DNA of 24,000 nt, taken from contig JAIBEX010000021.1 of the NCBI GenBank assembly GCA_019459455.1, forward strand, positions 197,576 through 221,575, given 5' to 3'. Shown piece by piece: positions 6,450 to 24,000 of the stretch (within the stretch, counting starts at the first letter, position 1; the number at the start of each line of letters is the position of its first letter). The position numbers and the translations under genes are program-made. A model generated the notes under the pieces. That model saw only the letters and a list, made by a program, of their open reading frames with translations, was not told where the DNA came from and searched no databases. Source of the DNA: Weeksellaceae bacterium (GTDB lineage: Bacteria > Bacteroidota > Bacteroidia > Flavobacteriales > Weeksellaceae).

Positions 6450-9400
6450 ATGAAACAACCCACGATAAAACTCCTCCTCCTGCACCTGCTCCTGCTGTCG
6501 GCAATCCTTGATGCTCAGGACCGCCATGAAAATGAACTGGCCGGTATTATTGCCCGCACGGAGATACCCGGGCACCTCAAGGGCGCTCCCGGTGGCCGGT
6601 GGGTGGCATGGCGGAAGACCTATGATACGAGGAACGATACGCTGCGGATTCAGAATACGCTGAAGCCCGCGCGTTTTTTCCACCGTCTGCACATCCGCGA
6701 CTACGGCTTTATGCGCGGGGATGAGCTGTGGCTCCTCGGGAAGGACGGACAGGCGGAATGGCTGAATATGGATACAGGAAAGGCGGTGCGGTACAGCGGG
6801 GTGGCGGCAGTGCAGTACCTGTCCGCACGGGACCTCCTCCTCCTGCACCACACACCGGATGCCGGAAACCGGATGGTCATACTGGACCGGAAGGGAAGGC
6901 CGGTGTGTACCGTGGAGGACGTGGTGCGGTTTACCGTAACTCCGGAAGACACCGTGCTTGCCGTAACCGGCCCTAAGGGTGGTCCGTACAGGGTGGTGAA
7001 AACCGCGGGCACCGGTCCGGTACAGGAGGTGTTCCGTACAGATAAGGAGGTCACAACCACGCTCAGCCCGGCGGGTGCGCAGGGTGTGCTGGCAATCGTG
7101 GCCGATGCCGGTACGCGTGATGCCGTATTTGTGGAATCCGCCACCGGCAAGGTGCACCGCCTCTCCGCACTGGTGCCAGGGCCGTTTAAAAGTGTCGTGC
7201 CGGAACTGCCGGCCGGAGGCGAAGGCTTTCTGCTGAAACTGATCTCCTCGGCACCGCCAAAGCAGACAGAGCTGCCCGATATATGGTACGGGAGCGACCG
7301 GAACCTGCAGCAGAAATTCTATCCGGACCGCACGCAGACCGTTATTTGGCATCCCGCCCGCAACACCGTGGACGATTTCGGGGGCTACCGCTTCAGCCGC
7401 TCCTTCGGAGTGAACAGCGGACGGTATTTCCTGAGTTTCGACGAAACGGCACTGCAGGATTATACCGAGCTTTACCCGCCGCTGAAAATGTACAGGTACG
7501 ACGCGGTCACGGGATCACATGCGGTAATGGATACCATCAGCCGGGAACTGTTCGCAGATCCCAACGGAAAGTGGCTGCTGGCCCCTGTGGCCGGACGAAT
7601 ACCTGTTGCCGATTACAGAGATCCTAAAGTAGCCCGATGGCATCTTTATGAAACTGCCGGCGGAAGAAAGACCGTCCTGAACAGTGCGGGGCTGGGGGCT
7701 CCGTATTTCACCGGTTCGGGCACCATTTTATTCGACGGCGATGGGGGTATCCGCAGCTACCTGCCCGCACAGAATAAACTGCAGATGATGGCCCCGTTTG
7801 AAGGATGCCGCGTAAAGATCCTGAACGGAACCGCAACGGCCCTGCTGCAGCCCTTCCGGTTTTTTACCCCGGCAGTGAATGAAGACCAGCCCCTTTTGCT
7901 GGAAGTGACCGAAAAAGAGACCGGCAGGGTGATGTTCGCCCTCCGCCACCGGGGCATCACCACCGTTATTGTTCCGTTCACCGCGGACCGGATCACGCAT
8001 TTTACTCCTGATGCCGGGCTGGAACGTTTTACCTGGATCCGCGAAAACCACAACAAACCTCCTGCCGTGGAAACCGCCACCCGCAGCGGGAAGGTGCGTC
8101 TGCTCTATGCCAGCAATGCAAACCGCAGGCAGGAAGCGGCCCTGCATCTGGAACTTACGACTTATAAAGGGATATCGGGCGGCAACCTGAAGGGCCTGCT
8201 GTATCGACCAGCACACTATGAAGCCGGAAAGAAATATCCCGTGGTCGTCCATATTTATGAAAACCAGAGCCGCTATGCGAACCGGTTTATTGCACCGACG
8301 CTGAAGGAATTCGTGGGCTTTAACATCCGGACCCTTACCGAAAAAGGATATTTCGTTTATCTGCCGGACATTGACTACGGGGAGGCAGGCCCCGGCCTTT
8401 CGGCACTGCACTGCGTGAACCGCGCGGTGGATGCCCTTCTGGAAAACCCGGCGGTTGATGCGGGCAGGATCGCCCTCATCGGCCAGTCCTTCGGAGGCTA
8501 TGAAACCAACTTCATTGCCACCCGGTCAGGTCGCTTCGCCACGTATATCTCCGGTAATGCGCCGGCTGATCTCGTACATAATTATCACGCTTTCAGCTAC
8601 AATTATTTCAAGCCCGGCTTCTGGCGTTATGAGACCCAGCAGTTCCGCATGGGGGTCTCTTTTGCTGCCGGTAAGCAGAAATATATTGCCAACAGTCCGC
8701 TCCACCATGCGGAAAAGGTACAGTCCCCCATGCTGCTCTGGACCGGTCTGGAGGACCGCAATGTAGACTGGGAAGAAACCCGCACCTTTTACAATGCGCT
8801 GAAGCGGAATGACAAAAAAGTGATTGCCCTGTTTTATAAGAACAACGGCCACGGCATGCAGCATGAGGATGCCATGATGGACCTGAGCAAACGCATCCTG
8901 GACTGGCTGGATTATTTCCTGAAGGGAATCCCCGCCGAATGGATAGGGAAGGAGATGGAGTCGCGGCCGGTCGCGCACCTGACCCCAGATGCAGCGCCAG
9001 AAAGTCCTGCATGGATCCGGGAAAACCATAATCTGCCTCCTGCAGTGGAAACCGTCACCCGCAGCGGGAGGGTGCGTGTACCTCAGGCTGGCAATGCCCA
9101 CCTCCGGCAGGAAGTAGCCTTACATCTCGAACTTACGGCTTATAAAGGGGTGTCGGGCGGGAACCTGAAGGGGCTGCTGTACCGTCCCGCCCATTATGAA
9201 ACCGGAAAGAAATATCCTGCGGTCGTCCATATTTACGAAGACCAGAGCCGCTTTGCAAACCGGTTCATTGCACCTACCCTGAAGGAACCGCTCGGTTTTA
9301 ACATCCGGACCCTTACTGAAAAAGGATATTTCGTTTATCTGCCGGACATTGATTATGGAGACGAAGGTCCGGGCCTTTCGGCACTGCACTGCGTGAACCG

Positions 9401-10422: not shown

Positions 10423-10821
10423 TTACATTTCCAGTTCCTCTATTTTAAGGCTTATCAGTTCAAGTACACAAGCTATATTTTCCTCTACTTCCTTATTGGT
10501 GAATCTGATAACTGCACAGCCTTGTTCCTCAAGGGTTTTTGTCCGATCTGTATCGTGCAGTATCTGGTTATCATTGTCGTGATACTCCCCGTCAATTTCA
10601 ATGATGAGGCTGTACTTATGACAATAAAAATCTGCAATATAAAGGTGGATGGGATGCTGCCTTCTGAACTTTAATCCTTTGAACTGCCTGTTTCTCAATT
10701 TTTCCCAAAGCATTTTTTCACACTTCGTAAGCGGATGCCGTAGCTTTACTGCTTTTATAAATCCCTCATTTGGTGCCCCCTTCCACATGCCATTATCATG
10801 ATTAGGTTTTATGGTATCCAC
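10423..10821 (-). CDS. DUF559 / Vsr-like endonuclease-domain protein
   Basis: The sequence PLTKCEKMLWEKLRNRQFKGLKFRRQHPIHLYIADFYCHKYSLIIEIDGEYHDNDNQILHDTDRTKTLEEQGCAVIRFTNKEV fits the DUF559 pattern (R.Q..i..yivDFyc......iE.DG..H........D..R...L...G..vlRf.n..v). The gene is AT-rich relative to the flanks. Confidence 0.85.
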   Translation of the reverse strand: MDTIKPNHDNGMWKGAPNEGFIKAVKLRHPLTKCEKMLWEKLRNRQFKGLKFRRQHPIHLYIADFYCHKYSLIIEIDGEYHDNDNQILHDTDRTKTLEEQGCAVIRFTNKEVEENIACVLELISLKIEELEM

Positions 10822-11515: not shown

Positions 11516-13027
11516 CTACTCTCTTGAAGGTTTTCGGCTTCCCCTGCTTTTAAAATACCGGGTAAGGTTCTGCGCAAAACGGTACCGGATAAGTTCACTG
11601 CCGGCCAGAACGAACAGATGTTCGTCCGTCGCCAGAAATTGTATTCGTTTAATATTTTCGGGTCGGCTGAGGTAAAAACTGCCGGTGTAACGTTGCTCTT
11701 CGGTGCTGTACACATCAATTACTGCGGCGCGTTTCCGGAGGGTTTTGTCTTCATGCAGCCCTGGCCGGTCGGATTCGATAAAGATCAGGCCCCCGTATGC
11801 CGATGCTTTTTTGTTCACGGTAACCGGAGGTGCGTTCATTTGTTCAGCCCCGGACGGAAGGCGTACCGACTTCACACGCTTCACACTGGCCGTATCAATG
11901 GTGTGATAGTTCGCGTACTTCCGCATCCCGTAATCGGTTCCCAGAAATTCATTCCGGTAGTAGTACAGGTAGAACAGCTTTTCCGTGGCGGGGTCCTGAA
12001 GCAACTGCCCGTCTGCACCGAATATACCGTCCTTACCATGCTTCAGAAGCTGCTCATTTAATTCAAGCGGCGGCTCTGCCTGCGGCTTCAGAAGTCCAAG
12101 TACATGGCTCCTCGTTTTGCTGCTTTGGGCACGGATACCGAAACTTAGTGAATCAATAACTTCAAGCTGGTCGAAATACGCCTGCTTATGACTCAGCGTC
12201 TTGGCTTCGGCCTGTCCCAGTTCGCCGGAATAGATAACCGGCACACTGCCGTCGTAAGCATAAAACCGGTTCCCGCTTACTGCAAGCCGTACCGACCGGA
12301 ACAGGTAGGGGCTGTGGTCAGGCTTGATCTTCATCTCCTGCAGCACAGTCAGTGCAAAGTCAGCGGAAGTCAGAAGGAATGGCGTTCCGGTGTTTCCCAG
12401 CCAAACCTGATCCTGTGCTGTTCCGGCAAAATAGTAGGCATCACCCGGCAGGGTCAGACGCTTTTCTTCTGTCACAGGGTGGGGAATATACCGCCTGGTA
12501 AAGTTGTTCTCCTTTTTAATAATATGTTCTGAGGAAAGGAACAGACCAACCATGATTCCCGCGGCGGTCACAAACAGGACGCCCAGATGAAGCCGTTTTC
12601 TGCGGCCCGTAATATGGTTTCCCGTTGCAATCCATATCCCTGTCGCCCCAAGTATCACACAGACAAGGTTGAATATAAGATGCTCCGTCCATCCGAGATC
12701 TTCCAGAATGCCTCCGCAGGAGCACGGCACAAAATCACTGAAATGAAGAATAAGGTAAATATAGACGGTGAACGCTACCATAAGGCCGGTCGCCAGATAA
12801 AGGGATAGGGTTTTAGTCCGCTCGAAGCAAAACAGCAGTACGGTAATAAGCTCGGCACCGATAACTCCGTACGATACAGCTTCTGCGTATGCACTTAGTA
12901 ACGGCGACTGTGCCAGTTGTACCTGAAACTCTTCAAATTCCAGCACTTTGCTTAAAGCGGCGTAAGTAAACAGCAGCATAAAGAAGAAGCAGATCGCCCG
13001 TACAGTATTTGATTTTATATTTTTCAT
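11516..13027 (-). CDS. MauE/DoxX-type redox-associated membrane domain fused to a roughly 330-aa C-terminal domain of unknown function
   Basis: The N-terminal ~150 aa has 4-5 predicted TM helices and the motif FVPCSCGGILEDLGW, which is characteristic of MauE/DoxX-like proteins. The rest is beta-rich with no motif I recognise. Confidence 0.85.
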   Translation of the reverse strand: MKNIKSNTVRAICFFFMLLFTYAALSKVLEFEEFQVQLAQSPLLSAYAEAVSYGVIGAELITVLLFCFERTKTLSLYLATGLMVAFTVYIYLILHFSDFVPCSCGGILEDLGWTEHLIFNLVCVILGATGIWIATGNHITGRRKRLHLGVLFVTAAGIMVGLFLSSEHIIKKENNFTRRYIPHPVTEEKRLTLPGDAYYFAGTAQDQVWLGNTGTPFLLTSADFALTVLQEMKIKPDHSPYLFRSVRLAVSGNRFYAYDGSVPVIYSGELGQAEAKTLSHKQAYFDQLEVIDSLSFGIRAQSSKTRSHVLGLLKPQAEPPLELNEQLLKHGKDGIFGADGQLLQDPATEKLFYLYYYRNEFLGTDYGMRKYANYHTIDTASVKRVKSVRLPSGAEQMNAPPVTVNKKASAYGGLIFIESDRPGLHEDKTLRKRAAVIDVYSTEEQRYTGSFYLSRPENIKRIQFLATDEHLFVLAGSELIRYRFAQNLTRYFKSRGSRKPSRE

Positions 13028-13822: not shown

Positions 13823-15559
13823 ATGCTGCACCACTCTTTTTCGACCGTAGAAATGTTTAAAATTGGATGGATTGTCTGTTTTGCTCTTGCCTGCGTTTCT
13901 GCTCGTGGTCAGAAACGCACCGATATTCCTTATAAACAGTTTCAGGAAATCTATGACCGCTATCCGGAAAACGATGTACGCGGGCTGCCTTTTGTTCAGA
14001 TGCACATCGGGCAGGCCATAAAAGACAGCCGCCCCAAGCAGCTGCTCATTGCGTATGAAAATGCGGTTTTCTTTTCTACCGGCAGGCAGGACAAACTCAG
14101 GTATGCAGACAGTGCTGTTGCGGTAGCCCATAACCTGAAGGACAGCAGCCGGATAAGCAGGGCCTATTTGGGAAAGGGCATTGTCTATTATTTCAGTTTT
14201 CGCAGGTATAAGTCCGCACTCAATGAATATCTGAAGGCATACGATTATTCCGGTTCTGACCGCGGGTCCTACCTGCACCACAAGATCCGGTATCATTTGG
14301 GTGAGGTAAAAAGCTACCTTGGCCATTGTGAAGAGGCTTTGGAGCATTTTGAAAACTGCCTCCCGTACTTTCAGAAGAACATCGCAGCCGGCAACCATCC
14401 GAACGAAATCTACAACAGCACGCGCGGCTATCTGAACACCCTCCATCAGATGATTGTCTGCAACCAGAGACTGCGTTTGTGGGCCAGGGCCGATTCCCTG
14501 ACCGCCACAGCGGCGGCAGCAGTAAACCGGCTGCACGGATTTGAGCAGGAAAAGGGATACGTCTATAAGTGCCTGGGACGTTCTGCGTTCCGGAAAGGGA
14601 ACTACCGCTCCGCCATTGCATTGCTCCGAACATCCAACAGGCTGCTGGCGCGGGCGGATGATTTTACGTGGACTGCGCTGAATGATTTCTACATCGGTAA
14701 ATCCCATCTGCACATGAAGCAGACGGCGAAAGCAGTGGCCTGCTTTCAAAAAGTGGATTCCTCCTTCATTAAACACAGGTTCCTGCTTCCCGAATTGCGG
14801 GAAAACTACGAACTGCTCATTACACATTACAGGAAAGCAGGGCGGCAGGACCGCGAACTTTATTACACACAGCAGTTACTGAAGGTGGACGCCTTCCTGG
14901 CAGAAGATTTTGATTACGTCATGACGCGCATGCACAAAGAATATGATACCCGGACGCTTCGGGCAGATAAAGTGAGGCTCGAAAAAGCGTCTCAAACCCA
15001 GTCACGGATGATCACCCTGCTTGCAGTTACCGCCGCGCTCCTGTTATTGTTCCTGGTGTACCGGTACCACAGGGCGAGGCGGGTACATCACAAGTACCTG
15101 CAGCTCCTTGCAAAGCTGGAGGCTCTTCAGAATAAAGGGGGAACGCCTGGCACCCCTGCGGGAACCGTGGGACGGAAGTATGAATACCGTGATGAAATTA
15201 CGCAGGAACTTTTGGAAAAACTCCGCATATTTGAAGAAAAGAAAGGTTTTACAGCAAAAGGCCTGACCCTCCGCAAACTTGCCAGCAAATTGGATACGAA
15301 TGGTACCCACTTATCCTACGTGATTAACGGGTATAAAGGGATGAACTTCAATACCTACCTTAAACACCTGCGGATCAATTATATTACCCAGTTGCTGTAC
15401 AGTGACAGGAAGTACCTGAACTACACCATGGATGGCCTGGCCGCAGAATGTGGTATTGCCTCCCGCCAGAACTTTTCGGATCATTTTTATGAGATCAACG
15501 GTTTGCGGCCACGGGAATTCATTGAGAAGTACAGAAAGGAGAACCGGCCCGGTGTGTAG
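13823..15559 (+). CDS. Membrane-anchored TPR-containing AraC-family transcriptional regulator (one-component sensor)
   Basis: There is an N-terminal signal/anchor (an alternative start is MFKIGWIVCFALACVSARGQ at 13853). This is followed by about 380 aa of TPR-like repeats, a TM helix (ITLLAVTAALLLLFLVY) and a C-terminal AraC HTH (LTLRKLASKLDTNGTHLSYVING...GIASRQNFSDHFYEINGLRPREF). Confidence 0.9.
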   Translation: MLHHSFSTVEMFKIGWIVCFALACVSARGQKRTDIPYKQFQEIYDRYPENDVRGLPFVQMHIGQAIKDSRPKQLLIAYENAVFFSTGRQDKLRYADSAVAVAHNLKDSSRISRAYLGKGIVYYFSFRRYKSALNEYLKAYDYSGSDRGSYLHHKIRYHLGEVKSYLGHCEEALEHFENCLPYFQKNIAAGNHPNEIYNSTRGYLNTLHQMIVCNQRLRLWARADSLTATAAAAVNRLHGFEQEKGYVYKCLGRSAFRKGNYRSAIALLRTSNRLLARADDFTWTALNDFYIGKSHLHMKQTAKAVACFQKVDSSFIKHRFLLPELRENYELLITHYRKAGRQDRELYYTQQLLKVDAFLAEDFDYVMTRMHKEYDTRTLRADKVRLEKASQTQSRMITLLAVTAALLLLFLVYRYHRARRVHHKYLQLLAKLEALQNKGGTPGTPAGTVGRKYEYRDEITQELLEKLRIFEEKKGFTAKGLTLRKLASKLDTNGTHLSYVINGYKGMNFNTYLKHLRINYITQLLYSDRKYLNYTMDGLAAECGIASRQNFSDHFYEINGLRPREFIEKYRKENRPGV

Positions 15560-15593: not shown

Positions 15594-16442
15594 ATGAATT
15601 CAAAACTGCTTTTCAGTAAATGCGACGCTCTATGGAAACAGCTGAATGAGAACACGGACCGGCTGCGGCGGGAGCACAGTGACTTTTTTGATTTTGCGGA
15701 AGGGGTATTGGCGGAAACGGACGAAGCGGTGCGGCAGCTTAAAGCGTGGATCACTACACATGAATTCGGCTGTTGGCAGGAGGAGGTGACCTTCTTCAGG
15801 GAGATAAAGCCCAGATTTGTTTCCCGCTTTATCTATTTTTCCCGCATCCTTTCGGTGGAGGCTTCTGTACCCTCCACAGGCGCGAAGGAACTGAGAAAAT
15901 ACTATGAAAAAGAACTGAATGCACTCGACTATTTTTCCTCGGAAAACCGGGATTTCATTAATTATTACCGTAGGAAAGCCACCTACCTGGACCTGAAGTA
16001 TTTTGTCCGCTTCCGTTACGATCTGAAAGTAAAACTTGCCCCCGATCTTCACAGCTATGATGAGAAATTCTCGACATCACATGATCTGACTGTTGCACAC
16101 ATTCTGGCTAATGATGAACTGGAAATCTATCTGCGCGGAAAAATAAGAAACACGGAAAAAACTTCGGTGGAAGAAGCCGCTCCCTCAAGACCGCTTCACT
16201 GGTCCGCCTCCAAAACGGCGCTTGTGGAACTTTTGGTTGCGCTGCACCACGCCAGGTGCTTCAATGGCGGCAATACCGAATTCTCCGAAATCGTCCGGTG
16301 GGCGGAGCGCTCCCTGGACATTGACCTGGGGCACTACCATAAAACCATTGGCGAAATCCGGAACAGAAAGATCGAACGCACGAAATTTCTCAAAATGTTG
16401 AATGAAGGTCTGACGCAAATGTTTGAGGAACTCGATGAATAG
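15594..16442 (+). CDS. rteC: RteC-domain protein (an excision-regulator family from Bacteroides conjugative transposons)
   Basis: Track ORF 15432..16442 overlaps the previous gene, so I prefer the start MNSKLLFSK at 15594. RteC-like motifs are present: EVTFFREIKPRF, YYEKELNALDYF, FINYYRRKATYLDLKYFVR, FSTSHDLTVAHILAND, LHWSASKTALVELLVALH, and IRNRKIERTKFL. Confidence 0.88.
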   Translation: MNSKLLFSKCDALWKQLNENTDRLRREHSDFFDFAEGVLAETDEAVRQLKAWITTHEFGCWQEEVTFFREIKPRFVSRFIYFSRILSVEASVPSTGAKELRKYYEKELNALDYFSSENRDFINYYRRKATYLDLKYFVRFRYDLKVKLAPDLHSYDEKFSTSHDLTVAHILANDELEIYLRGKIRNTEKTSVEEAAPSRPLHWSASKTALVELLVALHHARCFNGGNTEFSEIVRWAERSLDIDLGHYHKTIGEIRNRKIERTKFLKMLNEGLTQMFEELDE

Positions 16443-16817: not shown

Positions 16818-17018
16818 ATGAAACCAAAGAAAATCCGGGTCTGCGTGTACGTAAAGGATCTCCAATATGTAACCGGCCGCAGCGAAAGACACTGCCGCCG
16901 GATGATGCGCGATCTCCGAAGGAAGTTGGGGAAACCCAAACCTACGGCCATCACGGTAGAAGAAGTTGCCACCTATCTTAGCTTACCACCAGAAACCGTC
17001 CGGGATTTTATGGATTAG
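16818..17018 (+). CDS. Small basic putative DNA-binding protein (excisionase/HTH-like), 66 aa
   Basis: The sequence is MKPKKIRVCVYVKDLQYVTGRSERHCRRMMRDLRRKLGKPKPTAITVEEVATYLSLPPETVRDFMD. It is very basic and helical, and it sits downstream of rteC much as the excision genes do in CTnDOT-type elements. No family was confidently recognised. Confidence 0.5.
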   Translation: MKPKKIRVCVYVKDLQYVTGRSERHCRRMMRDLRRKLGKPKPTAITVEEVATYLSLPPETVRDFMD

Positions 17019-17145: not shown

Positions 17146-17784
17146 TTAAGGTGTGCGCAGCATCACGCCGTTGATGAAGCCTGGTCCGGCGATGAAAGCA
17201 AAGGGGTAGTAAACTCCCTTCTTCAGCAGTTGCCACTTTATGATGAAGGGATGGGGAGCTTCGGGATGCGGAAGTATGCGGGTAAATTTGTAGTACACCC
17301 CTGTGCTGAGGTCGATCTGGAGCAAGATGAGGCGGTGGCCGTCCAGTACCGGAGGCAAGGGATAAAAGGTAATGCCCATTTTCCTCATGGTCACTGCATG
17401 GAGCTCCGGGACCCCATCCAGGGGCTCACAGAACTGAAAATTTTCAAATTCATCAGAGGCACGAGGCGACAACAGCCCTGTGGTCAGCAGTTGATCCCTG
17501 CCACCATACCTGTTTTTTATTTTTTCGAAAAGGCCGGACAACCGTTCGTGAAGATGGTCCGTTGCAAGGTCTTTTATTTCATCTCTGAGGGCCTCTATGA
17601 CCGATGAAGCCAACACGTGCGGATCGACACTCCTTTGCGGCATCCCGATATAGTCCGCTATGTCCCTATTTTTCGCATTCGGTGTGTTACGCGGGCTTTT
17701 AAACAGCTGTTTACCGCCCTCCATGTAATACATGATTCCATCGAGGGGTCCGGTCCAGTTGAGGTTTGGTTCTATTTTTCCCAT
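17146..17784 (-). CDS. Hypothetical protein (212 aa), a weak paralog of the 252-aa protein at 18709..19467
   Basis: In track ORF 17146..17814 the first 10 codons (MSTLTLTLTK) are a translation of the hexamer repeat, so I prefer MGKIEPN at 17784. By-eye motif parallels with the 252-aa protein are GIMYYMEGGKQLFKSPR vs DITFYRTKHGYMAKER, and DEFENFQFCEPLDG vs ELLEGFDFNSTSPLE. Confidence 0.65.
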   Translation of the reverse strand: MGKIEPNLNWTGPLDGIMYYMEGGKQLFKSPRNTPNAKNRDIADYIGMPQRSVDPHVLASSVIEALRDEIKDLATDHLHERLSGLFEKIKNRYGGRDQLLTTGLLSPRASDEFENFQFCEPLDGVPELHAVTMRKMGITFYPLPPVLDGHRLILLQIDLSTGVYYKFTRILPHPEAPHPFIIKWQLLKKGVYYPFAFIAGPGFINGVMLRTP

Positions 17785-17787
17785 TTT

Positions 17788-17858
17788 GGTTAAGGTTAAG
17801 GTTAAGGTTGACACTTCGGCTTCGCTCAGTGCAGGGGTTGAGGTTAAGGTTGAGGAGG
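17788..17858 (+). repeat. Dispersed repeat R1, copy A: a GGTTRA hexamer array flanking a 41-bp core
   Basis: The core GGTTGACACTTCGGCTTCGCTCAGTGCAGGGGTTGAGGTTA (17806..17846) is identical to 20019..20059 and is flanked by ggttaa/ggttga hexamers. Confidence 0.9.
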
Positions 17859-17863
17859 TTTAG

Positions 17864-17890
17864 AAAAAAGGCCTCCTTTTGGAGGAGGCC
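17864..17890 (-). terminator. Rho-independent terminator after the four-gene operon
   Basis: The stem is GGCCTCC (17870..17876) paired with GGAGGCC (17884..17890). On the minus strand it is followed by TTTTTT (the complement of 17864..17869), and it lies about 6 nt after the stop codon at 17897. Confidence 0.75.
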
Positions 17891-17896
17891 CCTCCG

Positions 17897-18091
17897 TTAT
17901 TGTTTATTCTTTTTCTTTCTGATACGGATCAGAAGAAATTTTACTACGAGGGTGAAAAGGTAACTGGAGATGCCCCCAATTCCCGCCAAAATCACCGTCT
18001 TCAGTATTTCGCCGCTTTCCAGCTGGACCAGCAGTACGAGTGCCATTCCGCCCACTGCGCCCATGCGCTGAGAAGAGTCGAAGAACATCAT
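17897..18091 (-). CDS. Holin-like membrane miniprotein (64 aa) with a strongly basic C-terminal tail
   Basis: It has one or two TM segments (GAVGGMALVLLVQL, TVILAGIGGISSYLFTLVVKFLLI) and the tail RIRKKKNKQ. Its start overlaps the upstream stop codon by 4 nt (18088..18091). Confidence 0.65.
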   Translation of the reverse strand: MMFFDSSQRMGAVGGMALVLLVQLESGEILKTVILAGIGGISSYLFTLVVKFLLIRIRKKKNKQ

Positions 18092-18306
18092 TTCTGCCGG
18101 CCGGTTTTCACTGCGGTCTGGCTCACCGCACTGGCGATGGCACCTGCGAGTGCGAGGTAGCCTGCGGCTGCGATGACGGCGGCCGGCAATGCGACCGGGG
18201 CCGTGGCAATGGCGCCTGCTACCCCTGTCAGGATAAGTCCTGCGTTCCTGACCTTTCGGAAGAAGCGTGGTGTAGGCGCTTTCAACCGCTGAACGATCTC
18301 TTTCAT
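18088..18306 (-). CDS. Gly/Ala-rich two-TM membrane miniprotein (72 aa)
   Basis: It has a basic N-terminus (RLKAPTPRFFRKVRN) followed by AGLILTGVAGAIATAPVAL and AAVIAAAGYLALAGAIASAV. There are 4-nt overlaps with the neighbouring genes at both ends. Confidence 0.65.
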   Translation of the reverse strand: MKEIVQRLKAPTPRFFRKVRNAGLILTGVAGAIATAPVALPAAVIAAAGYLALAGAIASAVSQTAVKTGRQK

Positions 18307-18707
18307 AAACCTGCTTTTTTAATTGTTAACGTTAAACCGATGCCATGATCCAGCACAGGATACAGGCGTTCTTTCATTCGCTGCAGGGCCATCTGTGAAT
18401 GAGCGCCCTTTCCTTCCCCGGTATGCTGCAGCACCGGAGCAATACATCCGCGCAATTCTTTCACCGCGTCGTTTGCCCCGTGGAAGAGAATGTACTTCCT
18501 GCCGGGTACGCCCAGAATTTCGAAGTGGTTTTTGAATCTGGGGCTGAACCGTCTGCGGACGTCGTACTTTCCTTCCGGAATGCATGAAATGCCAGGCTGA
18601 TTGTCCTTCCACGGCAGTTCGACCGTCCTGCAGATTTCCTCACCGTAGAAGAGTAACACTCCATTTACTCCCCGGGGGTGGTAGGTTCTGAGTAGGAGGA
18701 TTTCCAT
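18303..18707 (-). CDS. DUF5675-like protein with a YkuD-like His...Gly-Cys motif (putative cell-wall-active enzyme)
   Basis: The pattern TVELPWKDNQPGISCIPEGKYDV...FEILGVPGRKYILFHGANDAVKELRGCIAPV matches my recollection of the DUF5675 pattern (T.E.......S.IP.G.Y....SP.F....L..VPGR..IL.H.GN......GCI). FHGAN..(x8)..GCI resembles the L,D-transpeptidase (YkuD) catalytic motif IHGTN...GCIR. Confidence 0.7.
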   Translation of the reverse strand: MEILLLRTYHPRGVNGVLLFYGEEICRTVELPWKDNQPGISCIPEGKYDVRRRFSPRFKNHFEILGVPGRKYILFHGANDAVKELRGCIAPVLQHTGEGKGAHSQMALQRMKERLYPVLDHGIGLTLTIKKAGL

Positions 18708-18708
18708 C

Positions 18709-19467
18709 TTACGGTGTACCTGAAACCTTCACGATGCGCAAGGCATTGAAGGCTCCGTTTAACAGCGGATAGTGGAACCCATTCACCGACTGGTAAAAGC
18801 TGATCCCGAAAAGCAGGAAGAGCGGATTCACCGAAGCAGCAGGCAGGGCATTCTCCAGGTTAATCAGCGCGGTGGGCTGCGATTCGATTTTCATAATGGC
18901 GGTTTCGCTGAAGGCGGAAGCCGTAACCTTAGACTCGAAGTTAATGTCCAAAGCAGCAGATACCAGTTTGAAGTGGGTAGCCGCCGGATCAGAAATGATT
19001 ACTTCCGTTCCATCAAAGGGGTTTATTGTGACGTTGGCCTCTCCTGCTACGCGGTCCAGGGTGAGGGACAGCGGCGCCTTGAAACTTGTTTCGAGCGGCG
19101 AGGTGGAGTTAAAGTCGAAGCCTTCCAGCAGTTCCGCTTCACCGTCGATTACATTCCTCAGTCCGCGCGGGTTTACCATATCCAGGTGAATCACTTTCAT
19201 CATTTCCTGGGTTAGGCGGTTCTGAAGGGATTTGCCGCCGAAGGAAGTAAGTAGGGTACCCATGGCGTTTTTAAGCACCTTGGCGGCATTACACGCGCGG
19301 CCGAATTCGGCCATGTTTTCGCGGGTTCTTGCGAACCTCGGATCCGTCAGCATTCTACCCGGTGCGACCCTGAGTCTCTCTTTGGCCATATAGCCATGTT
19401 TGGTCCGGTAAAAGGTGATGTCGGCCATGGTACCGTCCAGCTTGATAATTCCTCTTTGTTTTGCCAT
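18709..19467 (-). CDS. Conserved-looking hypothetical protein (252 aa), first gene of the operon
   Basis: The sequence begins MAKQRGIIKLDGTMADITFYRTKHGYMAKERL...RTRENMAEFGRA... I recognise no domain. Its stop codon is 1 nt from the start of the next gene. Confidence 0.75.
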   Translation of the reverse strand: MAKQRGIIKLDGTMADITFYRTKHGYMAKERLRVAPGRMLTDPRFARTRENMAEFGRACNAAKVLKNAMGTLLTSFGGKSLQNRLTQEMMKVIHLDMVNPRGLRNVIDGEAELLEGFDFNSTSPLETSFKAPLSLTLDRVAGEANVTINPFDGTEVIISDPAATHFKLVSAALDINFESKVTASAFSETAIMKIESQPTALINLENALPAASVNPLFLLFGISFYQSVNGFHYPLLNGAFNALRIVKVSGTP

Positions 19468-19573
19468 TTTTTTAAATTTTTATGCATTAACATTCAGATG
19501 TTGAGGTACATCCGTTAAAACCTTTTGTGATCACGGAGTAAAATTTGAATGAAAAACTGAAGAATACAAGCGG

Positions 19574-19685
19574 GATGTCCGTTCGCGGCCGAAATATCCT
19601 TTATCAGGTGAAATATCCTTTTTCAGGTGAAATGTCCGGTTATGGCTGAAATGTCTGTTTCTGGCCGGAATGTCCTTTTTTGGCT
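19574..19685. repeat. Six tandem 18-20-bp direct repeats, consensus GAAATRTCCnTTTnTCRGGY
   Basis: The units are at 19574-19590, 19591-19609, 19610-19628, 19629-19647, 19648-19667 and 19668-19685. They lie 107-218 bp upstream of the operon start at 19467. Confidence 0.9.
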
Positions 19686-19693
19686 GTCCGTAA

Positions 19694-19715
19694 CTAAGGG
19701 TATACTAAGGGTATA
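19694..19715. repeat. Direct 11-bp repeat CTAAGGGTATA x2
   Basis: Seen directly, immediately distal to the 19-bp array. Confidence 0.85.
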
Positions 19716-19994
19716 CTGTGCTTATCCTAAGCCATTACCAGGCTGCAGGTGGCCTTTTCCTATTAATGAACTAATGGGTAATAGGCCTGACACCCCTGGT
19801 AGAGGGCGATTACGGATAGGGGTTAAAAAGGCCTCAAAACGGTCTGCCTGCGAGGCGTCAAATTTTGAATAAAAAAAAAGAATTAGTTTTGCAGATTTTT
19901 GAAAAAGAGATCCTTTTGGGCGGATTTCGCCTCCATGGGGGAAGCGACCTTTGTGTCAGTATGCGTGCAATTTCTACAAAAAGGGGAGTAAGGA

Positions 19995-20059
19995 GGTTAA
20001 GGTTAAGGTTGAGGATGAGGTTGACACTTCGGCTTCGCTCAGTGCAGGGGTTGAGGTTA
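19995..20059 (+). repeat. Dispersed repeat R1, copy B
   Basis: The sequence ggttaaggttaaggttgaggatgag precedes the identical 41-bp core (20019..20059). It has the same orientation as copy A. Confidence 0.9.
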
Positions 20060-20504: not shown

Positions 20505-22433
20505 TCAACCTACCGGCAAATCATCATTAAGCCGCTTCAGGAAATAAGTCGGCGAGATATGATACCGTTCCTGGAAGTTCTTGGAAAAACTCTGTGCCGT
20601 GCTGTACCCCAGTTTCTGTGCAGTTTCCTGAATGCTCAGTTTCCTGGTTTTGGGTTTGGTCTTCCAGAGGTGTATGGCTTCGTTCAGTCTCAGGGTGTTG
20701 AGGTACCCGTTGAAATTCTGTCCTTTGTGCTGGTTAATCACCTTCGAGAGGTAGGAACTGTTGGTGCCGCAGTACAACGCCAGGGTGCTCAGCGTGAGGT
20801 TTTTCTTCAGATAGGCTTTTTCACTTTCAAAGGCATCAAGTTTCGCCAGGATATCGTCCACCAGTAAAGGATTGAGTTCTGTACCCGGCATCTGCACAGC
20901 AGCCGGTTCCGGAGTTTCCTGTGGCGGAGGATGAAACTGCTCATCGGGCAGTGCTTCATCCGGTACTGCAGCTTTTTCTTCATCCGGTACCTGCGTTACC
21001 TCCTGTTGGACAACAGGGTTTAGCGGCGGCACCTTTGAAATTTCAGGTACTGCCTCTTCATCCGGCACCGCCATAAATTCTTCGTACAGCTTTTTGTAAT
21101 AGTTGCGCCGGCGGTAGTACCGCAGGGCGAGGAGCAGGGAGGTAACCGTAATTATCAACGAAGCCCCGGTAATGATCCACAACCTTATTCTGTCTTTTTT
21201 CAGCTGCTCCTGCAGGTATACTTTTTCTTCCTTCAGTACGGTATTGTCATAGTGGCTGCTCAGGCTCCTGAAGAGGTCTTTGTAATTCTTTTCGTAAAGG
21301 GTATTGATCTGAAGCAACTTGTTTACATATTCCAGCTGCTTCTGCACATTGCCTGTTTTCTTATGGTGTTCATAAAGGGTTTCGAAGGCCGGGCGGAATT
21401 GCGGGTCAATCTTTCGGGTCTTTTCAAACTCCTTATCGAGCAGATTCAGATATTTCAGTGCTTCGGTTTCGTTTCCACTATGGTAATAGCTCATGCCGAG
21501 ATAGAATTTCTCGGTGAGGTGTTTCCAGTTGTCGTTGTAAAGGGCCAGCGTCTGTTTCAGTTTGCTGATGGCAAGGGGATAATTTTTCTGATAGTAGGCG
21601 TCAATGCCCTGCGACCCGATGAAGTAGGGCCGGAACTGCGGCAGTTTTTCCTTTGTGATAAACGCGATTCCCTCTGTCACGAGTTTTTCATTCCTGGAGA
21701 ATTCGCCCAGCTTCGAATGGGTGTCCAGCAGGGCGATAAGGGAATGCATATAATAGGGGCGGTAATCGGTATCTTCCACTGTCCCATGGTTTTCCCTGAA
21801 GAATGAAACGGCTTCCAGTAGCTGGGCGTTGGCTTCCTTATTCTGCCCGAGATAATTCCTGATCCGCGCAATACTGAGGTTCAAAACATTGACAAGGTAC
21901 GGGTTGTTTTTTACCAACAGGTGTCTTTGGGCCTGTACATAACTGTGCAGAGCGACGTTATAATCCTCAGTCAGTTCATGGAGCATGCCGTTCGTCATCA
22001 GCGCATCACCCATAATGTCCGGGCGGTTAATCCGTGATGCGGTTTGGAGCATACTGTCCGCATAGGCCATCTTTTTCCTGTTTTCTGCGTAAATGGTCCC
22101 CAGTGCATAGGCACGGTACAGCTTTTCGGGGTTTTTTTCCAGTTTTGCTTTCAGCGAATACAGGTCAATAATCTCCTGCGCCTGTTGAGGGTTATTCTGA
22201 ACTTCTATAACCTTTTTTTCAAGAGCAGAGAACGGCGTTTCATCTGCCAGTCCCTTACCCTGCGCCTGTAAACAGGACGTAAAAGTGATCACCATGAAGA
22301 GGGCTATACCTAAAAGGCATCTGTTACGGATTTTAAAAGTTCTCAAGCTAAAGGGCAGTTTTGCGGCCAGGTAAATATATAAAAAAATTTGTACTAAAAG
22401 CATAGGAGACCTATAAACACCGGACATCACCAT
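20505..22433 (-). CDS. Membrane-anchored TPR-containing AraC-family transcriptional regulator (paralog-type of 13823..15559)
   Basis: It contains TPR-like repeats, a TM helix (LWIITGASLIITVTSLLLAL), a Pro/Glu-rich linker with VPDEE repeats, and a C-terminal AraC HTH (LTLSTLALYCGTNSSYLSKVINQ...GYSTAQSFSKNFQERYHISPTYF). The true start may be later: an in-frame TTG at 22346 would give MRTFKIRNRCLLGIALFMVITFTSCLQA, a clean signal peptide. Confidence 0.9.
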   Translation of the reverse strand: MVMSGVYRSPMLLVQIFLYIYLAAKLPFSLRTFKIRNRCLLGIALFMVITFTSCLQAQGKGLADETPFSALEKKVIEVQNNPQQAQEIIDLYSLKAKLEKNPEKLYRAYALGTIYAENRKKMAYADSMLQTASRINRPDIMGDALMTNGMLHELTEDYNVALHSYVQAQRHLLVKNNPYLVNVLNLSIARIRNYLGQNKEANAQLLEAVSFFRENHGTVEDTDYRPYYMHSLIALLDTHSKLGEFSRNEKLVTEGIAFITKEKLPQFRPYFIGSQGIDAYYQKNYPLAISKLKQTLALYNDNWKHLTEKFYLGMSYYHSGNETEALKYLNLLDKEFEKTRKIDPQFRPAFETLYEHHKKTGNVQKQLEYVNKLLQINTLYEKNYKDLFRSLSSHYDNTVLKEEKVYLQEQLKKDRIRLWIITGASLIITVTSLLLALRYYRRRNYYKKLYEEFMAVPDEEAVPEISKVPPLNPVVQQEVTQVPDEEKAAVPDEALPDEQFHPPPQETPEPAAVQMPGTELNPLLVDDILAKLDAFESEKAYLKKNLTLSTLALYCGTNSSYLSKVINQHKGQNFNGYLNTLRLNEAIHLWKTKPKTRKLSIQETAQKLGYSTAQSFSKNFQERYHISPTYFLKRLNDDLPVG

Positions 22434-22833: not shown

Positions 22834-22846
22834 AGTATTGTAAAGA

Positions 22847-24000
22847 ATGGAACCACAAGTAATGCCCATCATGATTAAAAAAAAAGCCGGCAGTAAGAAA
22901 GTGCATACGCAGCAGGCCACAGACGGTATGTCTGAAAACGGAGTGCAGCGGAAATTGAGCGTACTTCATCTCCCGTCACCGGAGGACGGCCGCCATCTGT
23001 ATTTCCGGACGGTGGTGCAGGAACTGGAGGAAGCAGGCCTTTGGATCTGCCTGGTACTTTCGCAGCTCCGGGGTCCTGTTTCGGTTCCGGAGCTTAAAGG
23101 CATGCTGTCTGTGGAACACCGGGAGGACTGCCATGCCGCTCTAGCCGGCGTCCGTCACCTCATTCAGGGACAGGAAAGGATTGAAATCGCCGACCGGCAC
23201 TTCGCGGAGTTTTTGGCACTGCAGTATCCGGAATACCTAAAGGAATGCCGGGAGCACACCGTTCGGTTTTGCAGCGCGCATCCGGAAAGTCCGTATGCAG
23301 CAGTACACCTCGTGTACCATGATGCTTTATCGGGGAACGGGGCGGAAGCATTTGCAAACTGTTCACAGGAATGGGCAGACCGGCTGGCGCACCGGCATAC
23401 GCCACCTGATCTGATCCTATCGGATATCAAACGAACGGCAGCGCTGGCGGCTGAACTGGGAAAGCCTGCAGAACTGATCCGGCTTCTTTTGCTCCTTCAG
23501 CGTATGGAGTTCCGCTACAATACCGTCCTGAGCGAATTCTCGGCGGAAACGGCACAGGCCCTCATTGCGCAAAATAAATATGCAGAGGCTGTTTCCCTGC
23601 TGGTACAGCAGAACACCCTGCTCACAGACCCCGCCGAAGCCCTTCACTTTTTACCCTTTTTCTATGCACACGGAGCGAGGGCTGAAGCAGAAATGCTGCA
23701 TCATGCCCTGCAAAAGCAGTCTGCGCCGGATCCGGAGTGGGCCGGAAAAAATGTTTTTAACAGAAACCCGGAAGCCGCATCTTCCTGTGCGGATACGGTG
23801 CTGCATGAAACAAACAGGGGCGCACTCCCCGTGCAGAAGATATGGGACTGGGGAGTCGCGGGCCACGATCCGCAGATGCTGAGCTATGGCCGGATGCATA
23901 CGGATATTTCCGACCTGGAAAATGAGCCCGGTTCTGCTGTTGACCGTACCTGGGCCGGCAGGTATGCCCGGTCACTGATGGCATTTAGCACCCTCTTCGA
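22847..24000 (+). CDS. Hypothetical helical protein of at least 384 aa; 3' end beyond the window; not in the supplied ORF track
   Basis: I translated the frame codon by codon from the ATG at 22847 (preceded by an in-frame TAA at 22841) to base 24000 and found no stop codon. The sequence reads MEPQVMPIMIKKKAGSKKVHTQQ...LHLPSPEDGRHLYFRTVVQELEEAGLWICLVLSQLRGPVSVPELKGML...AQALIAQNKYAEAVSLLVQQ... Alternative starts are at 22862, 22871 and 22928. All track ORFs in this span are shorter and out of frame or antisense. Confidence 0.7.
   Translation, partial: MEPQVMPIMIKKKAGSKKVHTQQATDGMSENGVQRKLSVLHLPSPEDGRHLYFRTVVQELEEAGLWICLVLSQLRGPVSVPELKGMLSVEHREDCHAALAGVRHLIQGQERIEIADRHFAEFLALQYPEYLKECREHTVRFCSAHPESPYAAVHLVYHDALSGNGAEAFANCSQEWADRLAHRHTPPDLILSDIKRTAALAAELGKPAELIRLLLLLQRMEFRYNTVLSEFSAETAQALIAQNKYAEAVSLLVQQNTLLTDPAEALHFLPFFYAHGARAEAEMLHHALQKQSAPDPEWAGKNVFNRNPEAASSCADTVLHETNRGALPVQKIWDWGVAGHDPQMLSYGRMHTDISDLENEPGSAVDRTWAGRYARSLMAFSTLF

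Follow-up and report, generated by a model that had tools for sequence, protein, structure and literature searches.

What is the role of a compact run of minus-strand genes, one encoding a putative cell wall enzyme and two encoding hydrophobic miniproteins, in a Weeksellaceae bacterium, and to what kind of DNA does it belong? The run is found in contig JAIBEX010000021.1 of assembly GCA_019459455.1 (positions 197,576 to 221,575 of the forward strand), a stretch of 24,000 nucleotides referred to here as the window. An earlier note, made from the sequence alone, had proposed that the genes form a module for lysis or cell-wall remodelling. Comparison with other genomes showed that the first four genes, called A to D here, are an operon that is widespread in Bacteroidota. 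The explanation favoured here, tentatively and with a little less than even confidence, is that this is a regulated four-gene operon of Bacteroidota mobile DNA (integrative islands and plasmids), not of phage, and that it carries a captured lysis or wall-opening cassette. The genes and the terminator of the module are as follows.

18709..19467, minus strand: gene A, ORF of 252 aa, the core gene of the module
18303..18707, minus strand: gene B, ORF of 134 aa, a DUF5675 protein
18088..18306, minus strand: gene C, ORF of 72 aa, a hydrophobic miniprotein
17897..18091, minus strand: gene D, ORF of 64 aa, a hydrophobic miniprotein
17865..17895, minus strand: intrinsic terminator closing the A-D operon, a 13-bp hairpin and a U-run directly after D
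17146..17784, minus strand: gene E, 212 aa from ATG, downstream of the terminator and outside the conserved core

The five open reading frames (ORFs) described in the earlier note were recovered at the same positions, and the tight coupling and clean terminator that it had read from the sequence held up as well. Genes A and B are separated by a single nucleotide (TAAgATG), and the B/C and C/D junctions are both ATGA overlaps. The terminator hairpin has a folding energy of -19.5 kcal/mol (z = -3.54), and none of 200 shuffled sequences was as stable. The genes of the operon are not chance ORFs, because gene A has 3,628 indexed homologs, none of them informatively named, and a profile search of 1.84 billion representatives returned 4,443 clusters at 50% identity (E ≤ 1e-3); at E ≤ 1e-30 there were 1,111 clusters, and nearly all of these proteins are ca. 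250 aa long.

When one genome per species was scanned, gene A turned up in at least 556 loci. Eighty of these were kept, and 84 loci, including the window, were analysed; unless another number is given, the counts below refer to these 84. In 53–57 loci A is followed by B, C and D, all on its own strand, with homologs of C found after B in 47–55 and homologs of D in 50–57. The order A-B-C-D spans Weeksellaceae, Flavobacterium and Chitinophagaceae, and three classes of Bacteroidota. In three look-ups begun from homologs of B rather than of A, gene A was directly upstream every time, and several genomes have more than one copy of the module. The earlier note had made its idea depend on these genes occurring together in other genomes, and they do: A-B-C-D is a real operon, widespread in Bacteroidota.

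Gene B encodes a full-length member of Pfam family DUF5675 (PF18925), as had been proposed. The match has an E-value of 4.6e-27 and a score of 94.6 bits, against a gathering threshold of 26.7, and aligns residues 5–115 to profile positions 2–112 of 114. The protein also matches phrog_1501 (E = 3.7e-17), has no signal peptide, and gives an AlphaFold2 model with a pLDDT of 88 and a pTM of 0.84. The motif previously given as FHGAN-x8-GCI is present, with a spacing of seven residues rather than eight (FHGAN-x7-GCI). All of 54 close homologs retain His76, Gly87 and Cys88, and the HG...GC(I/V) arrangement to which they belong (H76-G77 and G87-C88-I89 in B) is invariant both in these 54 and in five phage homologs, from a microvirus, a Salinibacter phage, a Mu-like Vibrio phage, an Alteromonas phage and a crAss-like phage. 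Two further residues, Cys42 and His61, are conserved in the close family only.

Homologs of B are present in 155 phage records, and their positions in phage genomes point to lysis. The DUF5675 gene of the Mu-like Vibrio phage martha 12B12 is preceded by GemA, the late activator and another gene, and small genes lie between it and the small terminase; in the Mu genome map, this is the site of the endolysin. Two annotated transmembrane proteins are encoded directly after the DUF5675 gene of Salinibacter phage M31CC-1, a protein with a transmembrane helix follows it in Vibrio phage Virtus, and in a 5-kb microvirus the DUF5675 gene is the sole unassigned gene of a size to encode an enzyme.

The earlier note had likened B to L,D-transpeptidases of the YkuD fold. 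In favour of this likeness are the motif itself, the records of crAss-like phages, which label homologs of B "transpeptidase catalytic domain protein", and a 2026 preprint that classed DUF5675 as "C82-like" by structure alignments and as a candidate lysin while stating its function as unknown. The Pfam scan of B gave no match to YkuD at E ≤ 1, and the structure and profile searches given below did not support the likeness either. As judged from its sequence, B is a DUF5675 protein carrying a YkuD-like motif rather than a demonstrated YkuD enzyme. It is a candidate Cys/His peptidoglycan peptidase of the endolysin type, and would be expected to cleave peptidoglycan.

Genes C and D encode the two miniproteins, whose features were read from Kyte-Doolittle analysis only. 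The N-terminus of C is basic and amphipathic and includes a conserved PTPxFF. After it comes an Ala/Gly-rich hydrophobic stretch of 41 residues, in which an interruption by a conserved AP..LP suggests a helical hairpin. In D, residues 10–24 and 29–55 form hydrophobic windows, and the C-terminal tail is Lys-rich with a charge of +6. By these features D resembles a class II holin; its sole match in PHROG is a weak one, to phrog_11063 (E = 0.0057). The lack of a signal peptide in B fits a need for a holin. The holin-like character that had been noted for both miniproteins is borne out by the hydrophobic segments and the basic tail of D, and not by homology to a holin family or to phage proteins.

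Two genes on the opposite strand, beyond E, place the module in a different setting from that of a phage.

16818..17018, plus strand: 66-aa excisionase-like helix-turn-helix (HTH) protein, with weak matches to HTH_17 and TIGR01764
15432..16442, plus strand: RteC-family regulator (PF09357, E = 1.8e-65)

The earlier note had reported no phage structural, terminase or integrase genes nearby, and a Pfam scan of the large ORFs in the window likewise found none, but it overlooked the mobile-element context of the module, which consists of RteC, the HTH gene, integrases, tRNAs, plasmids and defence cargo. A homolog of the HTH gene is the most common companion of A, present in 63–75 loci and usually divergent from A, 140–310 nt upstream of it. 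Other recurrent neighbours are DUF6943 (31 loci), RteC (12–13 loci, and also L100–L105), and TPR-AraC regulators (10 loci). A tyrosine integrase with an arm-binding domain is encoded directly beside the HTH gene in seven loci, and in ca. 8 of 50 loci scanned there is a tRNA gene no more than 2 kb upstream of A. The cargo downstream is variable and includes Schlafen-type helicases, NACHT, HD-CE with HATPase, SMC-like ATPase, HipA, SIR2 and metal-efflux genes.

Two metagenomic contigs (L084 and L085) have an identical HTH-A-B-C module and an identical metal-efflux right flank, and their left flanks diverge around position 9380. The difference between them is an integrase-bearing insertion in one of the contigs, an island that carries SIR2 and Mu-transposase/IstB genes. 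The junction looks by eye like the 3' end of a tRNA, though ARAGORN found no tRNA there. The divergence suggests that the DNA immediately next to the module is a hotspot for insertions. Gene A is also found on eight Cytophagia plasmids: seven from a single strain of Fulvitalea axinellae (44–325 kb, one homolog each) and one from Marivirga (hits H31–H38). In the two Fulvitalea plasmids that were inspected, pFA12 (L092) and pFA9 (L094), A is near Rep, and in one of them it is also near ParAB. The presence of A on seven plasmids of one strain suggests a role in the plasmid backbone. The plasmids that carry A were typed as non-mobilizable.

Gene A had no match in 50,697 phage genomes (tblastn) and no relative in 2.9 million viral contigs (IMG/VR), which sets the module outside ordinary prophages, as the idea of the earlier note required. 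No phage structural or terminase genes were among the recurrent neighbours in the 84 loci, no conjugation, relaxase or secretion genes were recurrent within 10 kb on either side of A, and PADLOC-DB v2 gave no match below E = 0.1 to any of A to E. A region of Kaistella is syntenic with the window, with genes for an S9 peptidase, MauE, TPR-AraC, RteC and HTH followed by A-D; compared with Kaistella, the A-E block of the window is inverted relative to RteC.

The protein encoded by gene A, the largest of the module, was said to have no recognisable domain, and indeed it belongs to no family in Pfam, NCBIfam, PHROG or PADLOC. A Pfam scan of 56 of its homologs at E ≤ 1 found no recurring family. Identity across classes is 50–60%. 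The AlphaFold2 model (pLDDT 77.7, pTM 0.70) has a disordered N-terminus, a beta-hairpin, three helices (residues 36–94) and an eight-strand beta-sandwich (residues 133–249); Foldseek searches of PDB and BFVD with this model returned generic sandwiches only, none at E ≤ 1e-3 and with TM scores of at most 0.29. By residue count, the first 100 residues have a net charge of ca. +11 and the rest of the protein is acidic. A is a non-secreted protein that probably binds nucleic acid.

Two other identities were considered for A. A basic N-terminus with an eight-strand sandwich could be that of a capsid or satellite protein, but this was rejected, as there was no match to a viral fold or sequence, and no Rep or packaging genes were present. 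A plasmid Rep or Par protein was the other candidate and was not supported: the Fulvitalea plasmids have a separate Rep, and one of the two inspected also has ParAB.

Alignments show strong conservation over the 110 nt that precede A, and this conserved leader was missed in the earlier note. Several elements can be distinguished there and farther upstream.

19539..19547, minus strand: -7-like box, CAAATTTTA, aligned with the CAAATTTTG box of related loci
19491..19534, minus strand: leader element, the palindrome GTGATCAC followed by a candidate H-type pseudoknot, from alignments and covariation
19591..19686, minus strand: about five 19-nt direct repeats (GGAYATTTC-N10), 123–218 nt upstream of A
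19693..19717, minus strand: 11-nt tandem repeat, 2.3 copies, upstream of the 19-nt array

The CAAATTTTG box resembles the -7 element of Bacteroidota promoters, TAnnTTTG; upstream of A in the window there is no exact TAnnTTTG, only the near-match CAAATTTTA. The palindrome of the leader element is perfect and reads GTGATCAC in Weeksellaceae and GTGAATTCAC in Chitinophagaceae. It is followed by a 7-bp hairpin with a loop that starts with RCC, and these loop bases pair with an upstream GGY. The two helices of the resulting pseudoknot, S1 (GGU/ACC) and S2 (CGGAUGU/ACAUCUG), are at a fixed position 53–60 nt before the ATG of gene A.

The base pairing is supported by covariation. RNAalifold, run on an alignment made blind to structure, recovered the leader hairpin with three pairs changed on both sides. 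In a MAFFT alignment of 18 sequences, 98.8% of cells were paired, compared to 84.5% in shuffled alignments and 28–50% when the partners were slid. Six of the nine pairs were changed on both sides, including two of the three in the pseudoknot helix, and the covariation score was reached in none of 500 shuffles; as many of the leader changes separate two clades, there are fewer independent events than cells. A covariance model of the leader matched leaders of A only, in 1.55 Mb of related sequence, and these included loci outside the seed. No match to Rfam 15 was found between positions 16400 and 20600 of the window at E ≤ 1. We regard the leader, with its covarying pseudoknot, as a candidate for a new, operon-specific cis-regulatory RNA.

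In loci that do not have the pseudoknot leader, two other conserved leader types were found, GGAATAAT..GCACATA.CGG..GGAACGGAAGTG and ..AATCAATCGAAAAGTGTTGCAACAGGATGATGATTGA. The loci behind these other types include a number with a stand-alone A (L017, L020, L036, L042, L062 and others) and several from Flavobacterium (L023–L026, L034, L040 and L044). The type of leader appears to track clade, and perhaps the presence of B-C-D.

The 19-nt direct repeats are candidate activator sites and have a counterpart in other Weeksellaceae loci in the form of TTTCGGCA(A/G)AA repeats. More than 25 related loci also have arrays with an 11-nt period (2–5 copies), at -190 to -320 relative to A; examples of array positions are -317 in L001, -247 in L003, -467 in L005 and -521 in L070. 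The 11-nt units are not a simple operator, because their sequences differ between loci, for example L001 (CATGAAGTATC) and L008 (CCCCCACCCAT), though the HTH and A proteins of these loci are near-identical. Arm sites of an integrase were likewise rejected, as the arrays are too distant from the ends of the islands. The cause of the arrays could be DNA curvature or fast turnover of repeats.

If the operon is one of mobile DNA with a captured cassette, A, its invariant core, would bind nucleic acid and act in the regulation or maintenance of the island. In about two-thirds of loci, B, C and D are translationally coupled to A and would be the captured lysis or wall-opening cassette, with B as a cytoplasmic Cys/His peptidase of the phage endolysin kind, and C and D permeabilising the inner membrane so that B reaches the cell wall. 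Control appears to be exerted at three levels, by the upstream direct repeats, by a palindromic operator at the transcript start and by the pseudoknotted 5' leader. The neighbouring small HTH protein and RteC would be the likely regulators. In this form the lysis or wall-remodelling cassette of the earlier note is retained in part: the module does combine an enzyme with small membrane proteins, and phage relatives of B are at lysis positions, but the holin status of C and D is a matter of features.

A number of observations weigh against this explanation. Gene A is alone in ca. 29 of the 84 loci, followed there by convergent small genes that include DUF6876, and two Lacibacter loci have A-C-D without B. 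Because C and D occur without B, and A occurs alone, the cassette is optional and the role of A need not concern lysis; the fold of A yields no functional clue. For B, a Foldseek search of PDB with the model found no YkuD or other relative (best E = 0.3), sequence and profile searches of PDB gave nothing at E ≤ 10, and an hhalign comparison with a YkuD sequence entered by hand covered seven residues, the GCI heptad only. It is because of these results that B is not counted as a YkuD member, and any enzymatic or lytic activity of the DUF5675 family is itself a prediction. C and D matched no holin family in Pfam, PHROG or NCBIfam and had no significant tblastn match in phages, and no spanin-like gene was seen. 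No integrase or tRNA was found in the window, and the syntenic Kaistella region is chromosomal, so the local copy may be domesticated.

Other explanations share some of this evidence. It is possible, though doubtful, that A and its pseudoknotted leader make up an undescribed control module, on the mobile islands and plasmids of Bacteroidota, that gates an element-encoded autolysis cassette composed of a phage-type DUF5675 peptidase and two new membrane proteins. A would then be an RNA- or DNA-binding regulator acting on its own leader or operator and, if this were true, the element would programme lysis for the release of DNA or vesicles, or as altruistic death, outside any phage. Lysis could also serve abortive infection, with A sensing a phage and B, C and D lysing the cell before the phage matures. 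Several loci are among defence-type genes (SLFN-type helicases, NACHT, HD-CE with HATPase, SMC-like ATPase, SIR2 and HipA), the module is on mobile islands next to integrases, and its apparent effectors are lytic. Such a system is nonetheless unlikely, given the lack of a PADLOC match, the ca. one-third of loci in which A is alone with no alternative effector in the operon, a level of identity across classes (50–60%) that is unusual for a phage sensor in an arms race, and the plasmid copies in the Rep/Par backbone region. A location on mobile elements would also suit wall remodelling without lysis, in which B would edit peptidoglycan cross-links locally while C and D tether or export it, for example for the passage of an envelope-spanning apparatus or of the DNA of the element. 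The His...Gly-Cys motif resembles that of L,D-transpeptidases, enzymes that reshape the wall instead of breaking it down, and a spanin was not seen. Conjugation, relaxase and secretion genes are not recurrent within 10 kb on either side, however, the plasmids are typed as non-mobilizable and the phage homologs are at lysis positions, so that a purely remodelling role is rather improbable.

By analogy with colicin operons, A might instead be a toxin or other cargo, released when B, C and D lyse a fraction of the cells. The order of the genes, with cargo first and lysis last, the single regulated promoter and the mobile or plasmid location all have parallels there. This is very unlikely to be the function, as A has no consistent link to an immunity-like gene, is too strongly conserved, has no toxin domain and is often found without any release genes. 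Least likely of all is a decayed prophage remnant, a leftover lysis cassette without a current role. The phage homologs of B, in 155 records, and the integrases and tRNAs that adjoin some loci are what such a remnant would leave behind, but A, C and D have no phage homologs and no structural or terminase genes are among the conserved neighbours of the 84 loci. In addition, the ORFs are intact and the overlaps kept, the presumed catalytic residues do not vary, and conservation of the leader extends over three classes.

Gene E is outside the conserved core because it is present in only 5 of the 84 loci, and it has only three homologs in the databases. E is identical to a protein from a metagenome-assembled genome of Weeksellaceae, which marks the lineage of the DNA. 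An upstream GTG would extend it to 222 aa, though this GTG lies inside a repeat. The earlier note had taken A and E to be weak paralogs. BLASTP of E against A was not significant (E = 2.1), and hhalign aligned 191 colinear columns with P = 8.6e-4 and a probability of 23%; in favour of paralogy, the hidden Markov models of the A and E families found each other as the first non-self match (E = 0.002–0.009) among 4,613 ORFs. That E is a rare, divergent paralog of A is plausible but weak.

A longer repeat was found on both sides of the operon.

17788..17846, no strand assigned: 59-nt direct repeat, copy 1, containing (GGTTAA)n, between the terminator and E
20001..20059, no strand assigned: 59-nt direct repeat, copy 2, 95% identical, 534 nt upstream of A

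These are the only two copies in the window. They bracket A-D, 2,213 nt apart, with (GGTTAA)n in their flanks and GCGAAGC in their core. No copy was found in 94 other loci, and there was no support for the repeats as att sites of a cassette. By eye they look more like a dispersed intergenic repeat than like an att site.

The wider window encodes SusC/SusD, an S9 peptidase, a DUF559 nuclease, a MauE-domain protein and two TPR-AraC regulators, with the following positions for those outside the module that were delimited.

10423-10821, minus strand: DUF559 (Vsr-like endonuclease) gene, between the S9 peptidase and MauE
11516-13027, minus strand: MauE-domain membrane protein, 503 aa, in a block with TPR-AraC and RteC that is syntenic in Kaistella
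13823-15559, plus strand, and 20505-22433, minus strand: two TPR and AraC-HTH regulators, 24% identical
22844-24000, plus strand: open frame of at least 385 aa that runs off the end of the window, no Pfam match, in a region of 56% GC

The DUF559 gene is absent from the syntenic Kaistella loci, where MauE is adjoined by a DUF6520 small protein and the S9 peptidase. The MauE/TPR-AraC/RteC block appears to be a conserved locus in its own right beside the module, with a peptide or redox role. The two TPR-AraC regulators are paralogous and convergent, with an apparent transmembrane segment each, and flank the region of RteC, the HTH gene and A-E.

No description of this module was found in the literature searched, and nothing relevant was found on DUF6876 or DUF6943, or on RteC together with a holin. 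Among known systems, the excision regulation of CTnDOT-type elements, in which RteC activates genes for the small HTH proteins Xis2c and Xis2d, has a likeness in the window, where an RteC gene is likewise followed by a gene for a small excisionase-like HTH protein. In contrast to CTnDOT, there is no IntDOT-type integrase, Exc, mob or tra in the window and the regulated genes are different, so the link is one of position only. The leader of A is similar to small H-type pseudoknot RNAs such as the preQ1-type riboswitches in its size (ca. 35 nt), its two short helices, its place in the 5' leader and its covariation. It differs from pseudoknot riboswitches in having no Rfam match at E ≤ 1 and in the DNA palindrome that directly precedes it. 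With YkuD and other L,D-transpeptidases (MEROPS C82, PF03734), B shares a resemblance of its H-G-x-N...G-C-I to the YkuD HG...SxGCIR. The spacing from His to Cys is ca. 15 residues in YkuD and 11 in B, and the conserved Arg after Cys-Ile is absent in B (GCIAP).

The closest parallels are the holin-endolysin cassettes of phages (martha 12B12, M31CC-1 and Virtus), which like the module have a small wall enzyme without a signal peptide, then small membrane proteins, in overlapping genes. The DUF5675 lysis genes of phages encode true homologs of B, with 32–47% identity and the same invariant His and Gly-Cys. Unlike the phage cassettes, the module is outside phage, is led by a non-phage gene for a protein of 250 aa, and has a cassette that is optional relative to A; its C and D have no relatives among phage proteins, and no spanin was seen. 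Lysis cassettes are familiar in phages, whereas their stable capture by non-phage islands and plasmids of Bacteroidota was not described in the literature searched. The module overturns no expectation, but through it the functions of DUF5675 and the A family become tractable. With its invariant His and Cys and its dedicated membrane partners, the operon would be a clean genetic setting in which to test DUF5675 as a new cysteine peptidoglycan peptidase. The A family has more than 4,000 clusters at 50% identity, no Pfam model and no detectable fold relative, and is strictly tied to mobile DNA; because it is so large, even a basic function for it would annotate thousands of genes. Set beside these known systems, what is new in this locus is the combination of a cassette of the holin-endolysin type in a non-phage mobile context, a large uncharacterised protein family and a candidate new leader RNA.

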